A stretch of DNA of 27,775 nucleotides, taken from positions 1 to 27,775 of the forward strand of contig CAZLYK010000070.1 of the NCBI GenBank assembly GCA_964563495.1. The letters are read 5' to 3'. Position numbers and translations under genes: made by a program. Origin of the DNA: an uncultured Heliobacteriaceae bacterium. Its GTDB lineage: Bacteria; Acidobacteriota; Blastocatellia; RBC074. Under the pieces are notes generated by a model. That model ran no database searches. It saw only the letters and a list, made by a program, of their open reading frames with translations, and was not told the origin of the DNA. Of the stretch, positions 3,848-27,773 are shown in pieces; position 1 is the first letter of the stretch; every line of letters begins with the position of its first letter.

Positions 3848-4798
3848 TTAAAAATCCTGCTTGAGATCCATTCCGGAATACATACTCGCGACTTGATCGC
3901 CGTAGCCGTTGAAGAGAATAGTTTTTCGTCTTCCCCATTCTCCGATCCGGCGCTCGCTGGCCTGGCTCCAGCGCGGGTGGGCGACATCCGGATTGACGTT
4001 GGAGTAAAACCCGTACTCATCGGGCGCGTAGCCGTTCCAGGTCGTTTCCGGTTGTTTTTCGGTGAACGTGATTTTGACGATCGACTTGATGCTCTTAAAC
4101 CCATATTTCCACGGAACGACCAGTCGCAGCGGCGCTCCGTTTTGCGGCAGCAGCATCTTGCCGTAAAGACCAACGGCGAGAATTGTCAGCGGATGCATGG
4201 CTTCATCGATCCGCAGTCCTTCGTAGTATGGCCATGGCAGCACATCGTCGCGCTGATTCGGCATGCGTTCCGGATCCAGAAGCGTCATCAATCTGACAAA
4301 CCGGGCTTCTCCCATAGGATTGACCTGGTCGAGCAGCCGTTTAAGTGGAATCCCCAGCCAGGGAATGACCATCGACCACGCCTCGACGCAGCGCAGGCGA
4401 TAGATCCGATCTTCGAGCGGCGCCAGCTTGAGGATCTCTTCGATGCCGAAAGTCTTCGGTTTGTGGACCAGGCCGTCGACCTCGATCGTCCAGGGGCGGG
4501 TGACGAAATTTTTGGATCGAACCGCGACCGCCTGTTTATCGGTCGAAAATTCGTAAAAGTTATTGTAGTTGGTGATGTCTTCGAAATCGTTCGCCGGCTC
4601 TCCCTCGGCGGTCGCATAGGGGCTCTTAGCCGGCGTCTCGGGACCCGCCGTCGTTCGAGGCCCGGTTGAAGGAGTGTTCAATTGACGATAGAGCAGCGCC
4701 GTCGCTGCGGTTGTCCCCGCCAAGACGGCGCCGCGGACGAAGTTGCGGCGATTGAGATATTGTTTCTCGTCGGTAATCTCGCTGCTTTTAATCACCAT
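3848..4798 (-). CDS. msrP: Protein-methionine-sulfoxide reductase catalytic subunit MsrP (YedY, molybdopterin oxidoreductase). A Tat signal is present.
   Basis: The Tat motif RRNFVRG is present. There are strong block matches to E. coli YedY: [68 protein letters not shown] and HPRWSQASE. The RBS GGAGGGG lies upstream of the ATG at 4798. Confidence 0.92.
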
Positions 4799-4817
4799 GC
4801 TTCACCCCTCCGTAATA

Positions 4818-4883
4818 AATAGACAGGATTGACCGGATTTTGTCAGGATATGACCAGACACGATCCTGTTGATCCTGTCTATT
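4818..4883. repeat. Palindromic repeat element, copy A (AATAGACAGGATTGACCGGATTTT...GATCCTGTTGATCCTGTCTATT). It lies in the divergent msrP/rnhB promoter region.
   Basis: The terminal motifs AATAGACAGGAT and ATCCTGTCTATT are inverted. It belongs to the family also seen at ~8.0, 8.4, 11.4, 15.4, 17.6 and 22.7 kb. Confidence 0.7.
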
Positions 4884-5012
4884 GCCCACTTTGAATGCTG
4901 CAGAATCAAAATTTTATTCCAGGATTTCGGTGAAAGCTTCCTCATCTCAGCGCCCATCAAGTTATAATCAGCCGGCGTTTAAGAATACGATTTGACCATT
5001 AAAGTGGATTTC

Positions 5013-7944: not shown

Positions 7945-7986
7945 TCGAAATAAACAAGACTATCGGGATTGAAGACAATCACAAAA

Positions 7987-8008
7987 ATCCTGTTTAATCC
8001 TGTCTATT
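7987..8008. repeat. Half copy (right arm only, ATCCTGTTTAATCCTGTCTATT) of the palindromic repeat family. It lies between the oxidoreductase and the SCP2 gene.
   Basis: It matches the right-arm consensus ATCCTG...AATCCTGTCTATT. No left arm is present. Confidence 0.55.
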
Positions 8009-8031
8009 CAAATTTTACGGAGAAAGACCGA

Positions 8032-8349
8032 ATGACTGAACCGGCAAAAGACCTGACAGTTGATGAGTTCACCACCGGGATGCGCGAGAAGATCGGCGAA
8101 AATTCCCGGCTCGACGCGACCTTCAAATTTGTCTTCGATGACGGCCGAACTATTTTTATCGATGGTAAAACAGTGCCCAACCGCGTGAGTAACGATGATC
8201 AGCCGGCTGAGGTGACGCTCAGGATGTCGATCGAGACGCTCAACAAACTCCATCGCAAGGAGCTCAATCCAACCATGGCCGTCATGCTCGGCAAGATCAA
8301 GCTGGAAGGGAATATGATGACAGCGCTGAAGCTCGATCAGATTTTTTAG
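8032..8349 (+). CDS. SCP2 (sterol carrier protein 2) domain protein, ~105 aa.
   Basis: The C-terminal blocks LNKLHRKELNPTMAVMLGKIKLEGNMMTALKL are typical of SCP2. GGAG lies 9 nt upstream of the ATG at 8032. The upstream TTG-initiated extension to 7969 would read through the repeat half-copy, so I reject it. GC is lower (~52%) than in neighbouring genes. Confidence 0.75.
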   Translation: MTEPAKDLTVDEFTTGMREKIGENSRLDATFKFVFDDGRTIFIDGKTVPNRVSNDDQPAEVTLRMSIETLNKLHRKELNPTMAVMLGKIKLEGNMMTALKLDQIF

Positions 8350-8352
8350 GCG

Positions 8353-8424
8353 ATTGACGGGATTTTCTCAGGACTTGACCGGATGGGGTCTGGTCAAATC
8401 CTGAGAAAATCCCGTCACTCCCGT

Positions 8425-8430
<6 letters not shown>
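8353..8430. repeat. Palindromic repeat element, copy C, a variant (GACGGGATTTTCTCAGGACTTGACCGG ... CTGGTCAAATCCTGAGAAAATCCCGTC ... CCCGTCTATTT). It lies between the convergent SCP2 and M2-peptidase genes. The peptidase stop codon TAG sits in its terminal AAATAGACGGG motif.
   Basis: The inverted-repeat arms are ~27 nt. The terminal GTCTATT motif is shared with the family. Confidence 0.6.
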
Positions 8431-11364: not shown

Positions 11365-11392
11365 TTCCTGCTTCCCTTTGATGTTGACATTT

Positions 11393-11479
11393 AATGGACA
11401 GGATTGACGAGATTTTTGCAGGATTCGACAAGATAATATCCTGTCAAATCCTGCACAAATCTCGTCAATCCTGTCTATT
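11393..11479. repeat. Palindromic repeat element, copy D, full nested form (AATGGACAGGATTGACGAGATTTTTGCAGGATTCGACAAG-ATAAT-ATCCTGTCAAATCCTGCACAAATCTCGTCAATCCTGTCTATT). It lies between the nagA 3' end and the SDR start. The nagA stop codon TGA is inside its right arm.
   Basis: The inverted arms are ~38 nt, with about 3 mismatches. The nagA C-terminus ...RNRQD* is read from AAT AGA CAG GAT TGA of the element. Confidence 0.75.
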
Positions 11480-12643
11480 TCTCCGATAAGCGATTTGTCC
11501 GTCGACGATCGTCGCCTCGATTTCGAGGCTGGTCGTTTGATCGTCCCAATCAAACAAGACCAGATCTGCGCTGAATCCCGGGGCGATCGATCCATATTTG
11601 TCGCTCAAACCGAGAATCCGGGCCGGATTGCCGCTCGCCATCTGCAGTGCGTCATCGAGTGTCGCATCGGAAAAGGCGACGGTCTTGGCGACGGCTTCCT
11701 GCATCTCGAGGGCCGAACCAGCGAGATAAGGGGTGCCGGGCAGGCAGACTCTGCGCGTGGGGGTGAGTTCGACCTCGACCGCACCCAGCCGGTAACGCCC
11801 TGATGGGCGTCCCGCTGCGGCGATCGCGTCGGTCACCAGAATAGTGCGACCCGGCGTCTTGCAGCGGAGAAAGCATTTGACCACAGATGGCGGCAGATGA
11901 TGGCCGTCGACGATCAGGCTCGCCCATAGATCGTCGGTGGCCAGTTGTTCCCAGATGTAATTGGGGTGCCGGTCGATCCTGGCGTGCGAGCCGTTGCCCA
12001 GGTGAGTCGACAATTTCGCCCCGGCCCGAACAGCATCGGCAATCTGTTGGGGGCTCGCCGCGGTATGACCGATCGCCGCAATCACTCCCGCCTCGACTAG
12101 ACGCTCGATCAAGCCGGTTGCCTCTGGCCATTCCGGCGACAGGGTAACGATTCCGATCTTTCCGCGGGCTGTCTCCTGCCAGCGCCGAAACCGATCCCAA
12201 TCCGGCGGGCTCACGTGTTCGCGAGGATGCGCTCCGCGCGGCCCGTCTTCGGGCGAGATAAACGGGCCTTCCAGATGTATGCCCGGATGCGAGCGGGCAA
12301 CTTCCGTCGATTGCTCGGCCGCGCGCACGAGATTCGAGATGCATTTATCTATCTGTTCCGTTGAGCCGGTGATGATCGTCGGGCAGAAGGCAGTCACTCC
12401 GGTTCGCTTCAACGCGCGCGTCGCCGCTTCGATCTCTTCGACGGTTGTCTCGGGGAAGTTGAAATCCACTCCGTTGTAGCCGTTGATCTGGAGGTCGATC
12501 CAGCCCGGCGCGATGCGCAGGCTCGGGTCGCCGAGGTCGCAGCGTACCGATCGATCAGCGGGTCGCTGATCCGTGATCAGCCCGTCGACCATGGTCAGAT
12601 CCACAACCGTATTCCCGGCTCCGATCCTGCCTCTGATCTTCAT
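11465..12643 (-). CDS. nagA: N-acetylglucosamine-6-phosphate deacetylase family amidohydrolase (NagA-like).
   Basis: Blocks align to E. coli NagA: GWIDLQINGYNGVDFN (GFIDVQLNGCGGVQFN), IHLEGPFI (LHLEGPWL), STHLGNG and LVTDAIAAAG (LVTDATAPAG). The start ATG directly abuts the stop of the upstream small ORF (TGAATG). Confidence 0.85.
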   Translation of the reverse strand: MKIRGRIGAGNTVVDLTMVDGLITDQRPADRSVRCDLGDPSLRIAPGWIDLQINGYNGVDFNFPETTVEEIEAATRALKRTGVTAFCPTIITGSTEQIDKCISNLVRAAEQSTEVARSHPGIHLEGPFISPEDGPRGAHPREHVSPPDWDRFRRWQETARGKIGIVTLSPEWPEATGLIERLVEAGVIAAIGHTAASPQQIADAVRAGAKLSTHLGNGSHARIDRHPNYIWEQLATDDLWASLIVDGHHLPPSVVKCFLRCKTPGRTILVTDAIAAAGRPSGRYRLGAVEVELTPTRRVCLPGTPYLAGSALEMQEAVAKTVAFSDATLDDALQMASGNPARILGLSDKYGSIAPGFSADLVLFDWDDQTTSLEIEATIVDGQIAYRRNRQD

Positions 12644-14370: not shown

Positions 14371-14374
<4 letters not shown>

Positions 14375-15351
14375 TGTTCAGATCCTCGCTTGACCGCAAT
14401 CAGAGAGATGCAAACCAGCGGCGGGTTCGCTCCCGTCCGGTCCGCTTTGGGAAAAGGTTGAACGGTTGTCCGTGTCGGTGGCGGAGTCGGAAAAAAGGTC
14501 GCGTATTTTTCGTTCATGAGCTTGAACTCGGCCATATCGTCGAGGTAAACATTGACGGCGACCGTCTCCGACAGACTCGCACCGTGGCTTTCCAGTCTGG
14601 CTTGCAGCTTTTGCATGACCGCCGTCAACTGATCTTCGACGTTTGCGGCAGTTGTCTCCGACTCGAGATTGCAGAAGACAATCCCGTCCGGCGGATCCGC
14701 TCTCGAAGCGATGGCCGAGAGACAGGCCGCCTTCTCTCCGGGCAGCGCACTGACCGGAATCATGGCCGAGATGTCCGTCCCGTAATCGTTGCGAAAGACG
14801 ACCCGGCTTTGATCGAGGCCCAACTCGGCGAGCGCGCGCATCAAATTATCGTTCGCTTCCGACCGATCCTGACCATAGACGCCGGAGAGGAAGACGCGAC
14901 CGCCGGCTTCGACTGCCGAGCTGGCGTGACCTGCCGGCCGCAGGCTGCTCAGGTTGATCGTTTTCTTGAGGCTCAGGTCGCGGATGGCCAGAGCCGTCAT
15001 CTCGACGTTGGTCTCTCCAGGCATTCTGGCCACCCCGATAACCACGCGAGCCGGTGGAGCCTGACCGAAGTAGCCGGCATAGACGCGATCGACCGGACCC
15101 AGATCACTGATCTTTTCCAGATAAAGCTGCAGATGGACGATATGCTCAAGCGTCAAACCCGCGGCTTCGACGATCGCCTTGACGTTCTTCAGGCATCGGT
15201 CGGCCTGGGCGGCGAGCCCTTCGGGAATTTTGCCCTCCGCGTCGCGCACGCCCTGTCCGGAGAGATAGAGGTAATCGCCAACCAGCAGACCAGGGCTGTA
15301 CGGACCGGCGGGCCTGGCGCCGTCGGCGGGAACAATCGGTTTGCGTTTCAT
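14371..15351 (-). CDS. Tandem RidA/YjgF (Rid family) domain protein, with two endoribonuclease-L-PSP-like domains.
   Basis: There are two ~130-aa units, each with YjgF-like blocks: GPYSPGLLVGDYLYLSGQ...VHLQLYL and a second GGRVFLSGVYG...NVYLDDM. I prefer the ATG at 15351 (MKRKPIV). The six-frame start at 15387 is a TTG inside a repeat copy. Confidence 0.8.
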
Positions 15352-15358
15352 CTTGATT

Positions 15359-15404
15359 AATAGACAGGATCGACAAGATTTCTGCAAGATTGAACGATAG
15401 GATC
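15359..15404. repeat. Partial (left-arm) copy of the palindromic repeat family (AATAGACAGGATCGACAAGATTTCTGCAAGATTGAACGATAGGATC). It lies immediately upstream of the RidA gene start.
   Basis: It matches the left arm of copies D and F at about 80%. The right arm is degenerate or absent. Confidence 0.55.
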
Positions 15405-15437
15405 TCCGGTCAAGGCTATATAAATCCTATTAATCGT

Positions 15438-15642
15438 CCTCACGTCAGGACACTTTTCTTGGCGTAGGGGAAACTAGCCGGGAAATTTAACCGCCAAGAA
15501 GCCAAGATCGCCAAGTCAACCAAGCAAAGAATGGTCATTTTAGTTGGGCCAATGGTCCGACCCCGGACCTCCTTGGCGTCTTTGCTGCTTGGCGGCTTGG
15601 CGATTTTTATACCTTAAGCATGTAAACTGTCCCGACGTGAGG
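15438..15642. mobile_element. MITE-like 205-bp element with 15-nt terminal inverted repeats (CCTCACGTCAGGACA / TGTCCCGACGTGAGG). It is flanked by AATCGT direct repeats. Inside is a long imperfect hairpin built from CCAAG/CTTGG repeats.
   Basis: The TIRs match 14/15. AATCGT is at 15432-15437 and again at 15645-15650. The interior pairs CGCCAAGAAGCCAAGATCGCCAAGTCAACCAAGCAAAG with CTTTGCTGCTTGGCGGCTTGGCG. It lies in the 5' leader of the S15 hydrolase gene, so a structured 5'-UTR RNA is an alternative reading. Confidence 0.4.
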
Positions 15643-15680
15643 TCAATCGTCTCTATTATCTTTGCATCGAGGTGACAACC

Positions 15681-17534
<1,854 letters not shown>

Positions 17535-17549
<15 letters not shown>

Positions 17550-17620
17550 CAGGATTGATGCAGGATTTGACAAGAAAGGTCTTGTCAAATCCTGCATCAA
17601 TCTTGTCGATCCTGTCTATT
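17535..17620. repeat. Palindromic repeat element, copy F, the best-preserved full nested form (AATAGACAGGATTGACAGGATTGATGCAGGATTTGACAAG-AAAGGT-CTTGTCAAATCCTGCATCAATCTTGTCGATCCTGTCTATT). It lies between the convergent S15 hydrolase and MFS genes.
   Basis: The arms are 40 nt with 2 mismatches. It contains the S15 hydrolase stop codon. The MFS gene stop is 4 nt beyond the other end. Confidence 0.8.
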
Positions 17621-17623
17621 AAT

Positions 17624-22667: not shown

Positions 22668-22716
22668 AAAATAGACAGGATTGACAAGATTTTTTTCTTG
22701 TCAATCCTGTCTATTT
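22668..22716. repeat. Palindromic repeat element, copy G, a short form (AATAGACAGGATTGACAAG-ATTTTTTT-CTTGTCAATCCTGTCTATT). It lies 5 nt after the first TonB receptor stop.
   Basis: It has perfect 19-nt inverted arms with an 8-nt loop that is A/T-only. It could act as a 3' hairpin or terminator, since the loop/flank is T-rich on the plus strand (GTCTATTTAAAT). Confidence 0.8.
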
Positions 22717-27723: not shown

Positions 27724-27773
27724 GCGGTTTTCAGTTTCGTGCGTCCTGTCAGACGCACGAAACTGAAAACCGC
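27724..27773 (+). terminator. Perfect 22-bp-stem hairpin (GCGGTTTTCAGTTTCGTGCGTC-CTGTCA-GACGCACGAAACTGAAAACCGC) 10 nt after the last gene. It is a candidate terminator or 3' stabiliser. The flanking sequence is cut off by the window end.
   Basis: The arms are an exact reverse complement. No U-tract is visible because the window ends at 27775. Confidence 0.4.

Follow-up and report, generated by a model that had tools for sequence, protein, structure and literature searches.

A probable MITE-like insertion nested in a palindromic repeat upstream of an S15 hydrolase gene

Two divergent genes are separated by a 329-nt intergenic region (15352-15680) in which a 205-bp non-coding element (15438-15642) is found; we regard this element as probably a non-autonomous, MITE-like DNA transposon insertion nested in a palindromic repeat. 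The evidence comes from the inverted ends of the element, the 8-bp direct repeat that abuts them and the copy of an intergenic repeat family that the element interrupts. Judged from its sequence, its putative membership in a mobile family is unverified.

Results

Genomic setting

The window, meaning the whole stretch of DNA analyzed, is one contig of an NCBI metagenome-assembled genome in its full length of 27,775 bp. On one side of the intergenic region is a gene for a two-domain RidA-like protein, which heads a minus-strand cluster also comprising an SSF transporter, an amidohydrolase, an SDR and others, and on the other side is a gene for a secreted S15 hydrolase (Table 1). The N-terminus of the hydrolase is hydrophobic and resembles a signal peptide. 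A GAGGTG motif is found 6 nt upstream of the hydrolase ATG, and 38 nt separate this ATG from the right end of the element. The named homologues of the hydrolase and of the RidA-like protein are from Acidobacteriota, mostly Blastocatellia; given that the best of them are only 78% and 62% identical, respectively, the databases hold no near relative.

We also noted that the RidA-like gene has no Shine-Dalgarno sequence and that TATTAA of the palindrome end is 5 nt upstream of its ATG (15351-15365, minus strand); a promoter within the palindromic repeat may drive its expression as a leaderless mRNA. At the extreme end of the contig, after the last ORF, is a perfect 22-nt inverted repeat with a 6-nt loop (GCGGTTTTCAGTTTCGTGCGTC / GACGCACGAAACTGAAAACCGC, 27724-27773), which could act as a terminator or be a further repeat at which the assembly broke. 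No tRNA or tmRNA able to mark an integration site was found.

Table 1. Positions of the element, its component repeats, the palindromic repeat copies and the flanking genes in the 27,775-bp window
Feature	Position	Strand	Remarks
Two-domain RidA / Ribonuc_L-PSP gene	14371..15351	-	First gene of minus-strand cluster
Interrupted palindromic repeat copy	15358-15437 plus 15651-15659		Split by the 205-bp element
Left and central part of degenerate palindrome copy, putative insertion host	15358..15429		Aligns with 17534-17621, 11392-11480 and others
Left direct-repeat copy TTAATCGT, candidate target-site duplication	15430..15437		Abuts left inverted repeat
Non-coding MITE-like element, 205 bp	15438..15642		Inverted repeats and direct repeats at its bounds
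Left terminal inverted repeat CCTCACGTCAGGACA	15438..15452	+	15 nt
Tandem array of 8-nt units, consensus CGCCAAGA x2.9	15492..15515	+	Left arm of inner hairpin (Tandem Repeats Finder)
Apical G+C hairpin GGTCCG-ACCC-CGGACC	15554..15569	+	Paired in predicted minimum-free-energy folds; near element centre
Tandem array of 8-nt units, consensus CTTGGCGG x3.9	15572..15602	+	Right arm of inner hairpin (Tandem Repeats Finder)
Right terminal inverted repeat TGTCCCGACGTGAGG	15628..15642	+	15 nt, complementary to left at 14/15
Right direct-repeat copy TCAATCGT	15643..15650		Abuts right inverted repeat; 7/8 match to left copy
Right terminus CTCTATTAT of interrupted palindrome copy	15651..15659		Displaced by the proposed insertion
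Secreted CocE/NonD-type S15 hydrolase gene	15681..17549	+	
Palindromic repeat copies	4817-4884; 7948-8009; 8343-8430; 11392-11480; 17534-17621; 22669-22716		

The element has inverted ends and a hairpin interior

The preliminary description of this DNA had placed a pair of 15-nt inverted repeats at the ends of the element. Their coordinates and 14/15 complementarity proved correct, and of 2000 shuffles of the 329-nt intergenic region that preserved its dinucleotides, one yielded an inverted repeat of 15 nt with at most one mismatch. The single A.C mismatch between the two ends becomes G-U on the minus strand. The interior had been described as a long hairpin of reiterated CCAAG and CTTGG pentamers, and this too held. 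Each pentamer occurs four times within the 205 bp, where about 0.15 would be expected at the window rate, and the 8-nt units form two arrays of opposite orientation, which can base-pair in several alternative registers. The predicted fold of the region is far more stable than those of shuffled sequences, both as RNA (-89.8 kcal/mol, z -6.1 for the plus strand; -93.5 kcal/mol, z -7.0 for the minus strand) and as DNA (-44.9 kcal/mol, z -5.9).

The longest ORFs inside the element are 28-43 aa, and its six-frame translations, joined into one query that would also catch spurious ORF calls on further copies, matched nothing at E<=10 in a set of 5.8 billion proteins. A 28-aa ORF (15531-15617) that would encode a hydrophobic tail was considered as a possible small protein and rejected, as it has no ribosome-binding site and no homologues. 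The G+C content of the element is 51.7%, compared to 37-42% for the flanking intergenic DNA and 58.3% for the window. MITEs are about 50-800 bp long and carry neither a transposase nor any other gene; at 205 bp, the element is small, non-coding and bounded by terminal inverted repeats.

The element splits a copy of an intergenic palindromic repeat

A family of ~88-nt palindromic repeats with the ends AATAGACAGGAT...ATCCTGTCTATT is present in seven copies in the 27.8 kb, all of them intergenic. The intact copies are near-perfect hairpins with predicted folding energies of -35 to -44 kcal/mol (z -12 to -17). As short extragenic palindromes in many copies, they are of the REP/BIME type; classical REPs are 20-40 nt, shorter than the ~88-nt palindromes of the window (PMC3733652). 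We saw no RAYT gene in the window, and BLASTN detected no member of the family in about 85 kb of relatives' loci (L005-L008, L010-L014). The palindrome family may itself be a mobile foldback repeat. The palindrome arms consist of 9-11-nt GATTGACAR units that contain TTGACA, and copies are found in divergent, convergent and co-directional intergenic regions alike.

On the left side of the 205-bp element, the sequence from about 15358 to 15436 is 73% identical to positions 11-88 of the palindrome copy at 17534 (BLASTN). On the right side, TCAATCGTCTCTATTA (16 nt, 15643-15658) is identical to the right end of the family, TCAATCCTGTCTATTT, at 13 of 16 positions, and an inverted repeat (I6) pairs 15358-15374 with 15642-15658 across the element. 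Upon removal of the 205 bp and one 8-mer in silico, 92 nt remain, which align with intact copies (91-92 nt) with few small gaps and scores of 35 and 29, compared to scores of -154 and -161 for the unexcised region. The palindromic repeat next to the element, taken at first to be a partial copy, is thus a full-length copy that the element splits and that regains its normal length upon excision. The six intact copies serve as paralogous empty sites and are evidence for an insertion. No orthologous empty site is available, since the nearest relatives are only 78% and 62% identical in the two flanking proteins and are not syntenic.

An 8-bp direct repeat abuts both ends of the element

The element had been reported to be flanked by AATCGT repeats as a candidate target-site duplication, with the right copy offset by 2 nt. 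The direct repeat is present, but the offset is not, since the repeat read as 8 bp (7/8 identical) abuts the inverted repeats on both sides. Intact palindrome copies have TCAATC / TCGATC at the position of their right arm that corresponds to the right copy, TCAATCGT. Under a uniform model, a 7/8 direct repeat has a chance probability of 3.8e-4, and adjacent 8-mers matching at 7/8 or better are found at 5.8e-4 of window positions. Adjacent 8-mers match at no more than 4/8 at all 419 positions of the six intact palindrome copies, and the native period of the family is 9-11 nt; an 8-nt duplication is therefore not native to the target.

We compared this reading with a model without duplication, in which both 8-mers belong to the palindrome. 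With both 8-mers kept, the alignment scores are 33 and 25, nearly as high as the 35 and 29 obtained with one 8-mer removed, and the palindrome copy is left 8-9 nt too long. The site without duplication folds better, however (-13.7 kcal/mol, z -3.2 compared to -6.4 kcal/mol, z 0.05), because the junction of ATCGT with TCAATC is complementary to 15388-15398. On these sequence comparisons, a real target-site duplication is favoured, though not proven.

The same observations bear on whether the element could be a non-mobile palindrome that grew in place, by inverted duplication and 8-nt slippage in a BIME-like composite within the palindrome cluster. The flanking AATCGT repeats would then be periodic units of the host repeat rather than a target-site duplication. 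Such an origin is consistent with the 9-11-nt periodicity of the host palindrome arms, with an interior made of tandem and inverted 8-nt units, with the perfect complementarity to 15388-15398 of the junction that retains both 8-mers and the better fold of the site so reconstructed, and with the lack of other copies in the contig, genomes, metagenomes, protein space and relatives' loci that were searched. It does not account well for the interior, which is dissimilar to the host palindrome family, or for the position of the 15-nt inverted repeats at the exact borders of the similarity to the host repeat. Furthermore, tandem 8-mers are found in none of the six intact palindrome copies, and the canonical palindrome length is regained upon excision that includes one 8-mer. 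We consider local growth unlikely and a MITE-like insertion probable.

Independent assemblies contain both ends of the element

Independent Logan k=31 contigs of the same population, assembled from two samples (L002 and L003), agree base for base, carry the left inverted repeat and both end at 15504. A further Logan contig (L001), from one of these two samples, starts at 15612 and carries the right inverted repeat, with its first 31-mer ending on the last base of that repeat. Both inverted repeats and both direct repeats are thus confirmed in independent assemblies, and the central 107 nt (15505-15611) are outside the coverage of the Logan contigs examined.

We considered whether the locus might be an assembly artefact in which two contig ends were joined through a spurious or foreign middle segment, given that the Logan contigs break off at 15504 and resume at 15612, which leaves 15505-15611 without independent support among the contigs examined. 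This is extremely improbable. The inverted and direct repeats are all within independently assembled parts, the contigs from two samples are identical, and the middle segment symmetrically continues the arms of the hairpin.

The element contains no internal repeat of at least 30 nt that would explain a branch in the assembly graph. The breaks inside the element are compatible with further copies or with a polymorphic core and prove neither. The central 107 nt, with their slippage-prone 8-nt arrays, could differ between cells of the population. That the element is an active or polymorphic switch in the control region common to both divergent genes is quite improbable. On that reading, a transposase or a regulator might bind the inverted CGCCAAG/CTTGGCG arrays as subterminal sites, in a manner similar to the subterminal repeats of hAT elements, which likewise duplicate 8 bp.

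Searches for further copies and a parent element

Neither a second copy of the element nor a solo end above chance was detected in the 27.8-kb contig, and the element was not found by BLASTN in about 85 kb of relatives' loci. We scanned one genome per species (185,579 species) for the exact 12+12-nt end pair CACGTCRGGACA-N(160-190)-TGTCCYGACGTG, and JGI metagenome contigs for the same end pair with a spacer of N(155-185). Each scan returned one locus, L004 from the genomes and L009 from the metagenomes. Both loci were judged to be chance matches, since in a perfect palindrome a single 12-mer match satisfies the end-pair pattern. In L004, from a Myxococcaceae MAG (JAQBQI010000572.1), the match is in a palindrome of about 300 nt (3899-4200) whose near-perfect arms of ~60 nt enclose an unrelated interior, and the L009 contig opens with a palindrome that has arms of >150 nt and an unrelated interior, probably an assembly foldback. 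The L004 palindrome has a 14-nt core, TCACGTCGGGACAC, in common with the left inverted repeat of the element; in L004, this core is internal to the palindrome arms.

Neither scan recovered the window itself, indicating that the source genome is outside both collections. A looser 11+11 end-pair pattern gave 0 matches in viral contigs, and plasmids searched by BLASTN yielded nothing beyond chance matches of 27-31 nt. The window contains neither a transposase nor a matching insertion sequence; a parent insertion sequence would be seen as CCTCACGTCRGGACA pairs 0.8-2.5 kb apart around a transposase gene. The original proposal of a MITE is therefore upheld in part: the ends, the 8-bp duplication, the non-coding character, the hairpin and the interrupted repeat are in agreement with it, but multiple copies were not found in the contig or the collections searched.

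The element is not conserved upstream of homologous genes

As an alternative to a mobile element, the preliminary description had proposed a structured cis-regulatory 5'-UTR RNA with the outer 15-bp stem as its closing helix. Such an RNA would act on the plus strand in the leader of the hydrolase gene, or on the minus strand in that of the RidA-like operon. The very stable fold on both strands (z -6.1 and -7.0) is consistent with such an RNA, as is the position of the element 38 nt before the hydrolase ATG, with the Shine-Dalgarno sequence unpaired; weak evidence in the same direction is the change of the outer-stem mismatch to G-U on the minus strand, where five more pairs form. Against this, the arms are repetitive 8-nt units that pair in several registers, unlike a fold that binds a specific ligand or protein, and the element interrupts another repeat and is flanked by a duplication. 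A consensus scan revealed no sigma-70-like promoter in 15300-15750. Two promoter candidates picked out by eye, a weak hybrid promoter with TATTAT (15654-15659) and a poor -35 and a sigma-54-like TGGC-N8-TGC (15574-15588), were rejected as not above chance for a repeated motif.

A conserved cis-regulatory leader would be expected to recur, with covarying stems, in front of homologous genes or to match a curated RNA family. Rfam gave no match at the gathering threshold for the whole window, nor at E<=10 for 15340-15700. The closest hydrolase homologues (L005-L008) follow a dxr, acetyltransferase or Uma2 gene with upstream gaps of 23-97 nt, and the RidA-like homologues (L010-L014, <=62% identity) lie opposite a TonB-type outer-membrane protein gene, small ORFs without annotation or selA, roughly 150-250 nt away. 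Synteny is not conserved around the homologues of either flanking gene, and BLASTN detected no trace of the element beside them. The suggestion of a conserved 5'-UTR RNA is thus not supported by the homologue loci examined, which have other neighbours. We consider a conserved regulatory leader unlikely and a structured cis-regulatory RNA at this site very improbable.

Examination of these loci also revealed that more distant Blastocatellia relatives (L012, 1-5053; L010, 1-5047) have, divergent to the RidA-like gene, a gene for a CarboxypepD_reg/TonB-type outer-membrane protein, and that in L012 an S15 peptidase gene is located just past the latter. The gene families of the window recur together in distant Blastocatellia relatives, in a different order.

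Discussion

A model for the insertion

We propose that a 205-bp element with 15-bp terminal inverted repeats may have entered the right arm of a pre-existing ~88-nt palindrome in the divergent promoter region between the RidA-like operon and the S15 hydrolase gene. A DDE-type transposase encoded elsewhere would have recognised the ends and cut with an 8-bp stagger, such that 8 bp of the target (TCAATCGT) would have been duplicated, with a C -> T change later in one copy. Duplications of 8 bp occur in several IS families, including IS256, ISL3, IS66 and IS1595, and the ends of the element do not discriminate among them. The inverted 8-nt arrays may represent a minisatellite grown by slippage or subterminal protein-binding repeats. 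Mobility in trans, a parent element and any effect on expression are inferences. At present, the element would put a highly stable hairpin (about -90 kcal/mol when folded as RNA) 38 nt upstream of the hydrolase ATG, and the insertion would also have moved most of the original intergenic DNA away from the hydrolase gene.

If more copies exist, Blastocatellia-type Acidobacteriota would gain a new MITE family, in a phylum with hardly any described small mobile repeats, and the nesting of one repeat in another would give a relative dating of both. For annotation, the 329-nt divergent intergenic region is accounted for, and the strong hairpin in front of the hydrolase gene probably represents acquired DNA and not a conserved regulatory RNA. 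The element is an ordinary kind of bacterial repeat, and its importance is modest.

Comparison with known repeat elements

Prokaryotic MITEs are small, intergenic elements with inverted ends and direct repeats that form stable stem-loops (PMC10969869). QMITE2 of Coxiella burnetii, for example, has direct repeats of 7-9 bp, inverted repeats of 23-29 bp and a core of 113-145 bp, and the hairpin of its transcript is very stable (PMC10969869). The element described here is likewise ~200 bp, non-coding and intergenic, with terminal inverted repeats, a direct repeat of the 7-9-bp class and a predicted stem-loop of about -90 kcal/mol along its whole length. Unlike QMITE2, it is known as one copy, no parent insertion sequence has been identified for it, and its inverted repeats are shorter (15 nt). 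Its G+C content (52%) is higher than that of the surrounding intergenic DNA (37-42%).

The combination of inverted ends and short internal repeats is also found in BrickBuilt of Porphyromonas gingivalis, a MITE with a minisatellite inside (PMC4596501). As in BrickBuilt, a short-unit tandem array is contained within an element bounded by inverted repeats, but the units are 8 nt and form two opposed, mutually pairing arrays of ~3-4 units each.

Palindromic repeats are documented targets of insertion sequences (PMC1525189), and those that insert into REPs or other palindromes include IS1397 and ISPpu9/10, among others (PMC1525189, PMC12288879). The position of the 205-bp element within a repeated extragenic palindrome is reminiscent of IS1397 and ISPpu9/10. 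These and related insertion sequences are autonomous, 1-2 kb long and encode a transposase, whereas the element is 205 bp and non-coding, with inverted ends. Elements of the IS110/IS1111 type have no terminal inverted repeats, generate little or no duplication and encode a DEDD recombinase. An IS110/IS1111-type REP-targeting element was considered and rejected, as the element has inverted repeats at its termini, is flanked by an 8-bp repeat and contains no ORF.

The location next to a gene invites comparison with the Correia elements of Neisseria, MITEs that provide promoters upstream of genes (PMC10969869). In contrast to these elements, the 205-bp element has no sigma-70-like promoter detectable by scan in it or around it. 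Correia elements duplicate TA, not 8 bp. Like them, the element described here is a small, inverted-repeat element immediately upstream of a gene, and it could alter the expression of that gene.
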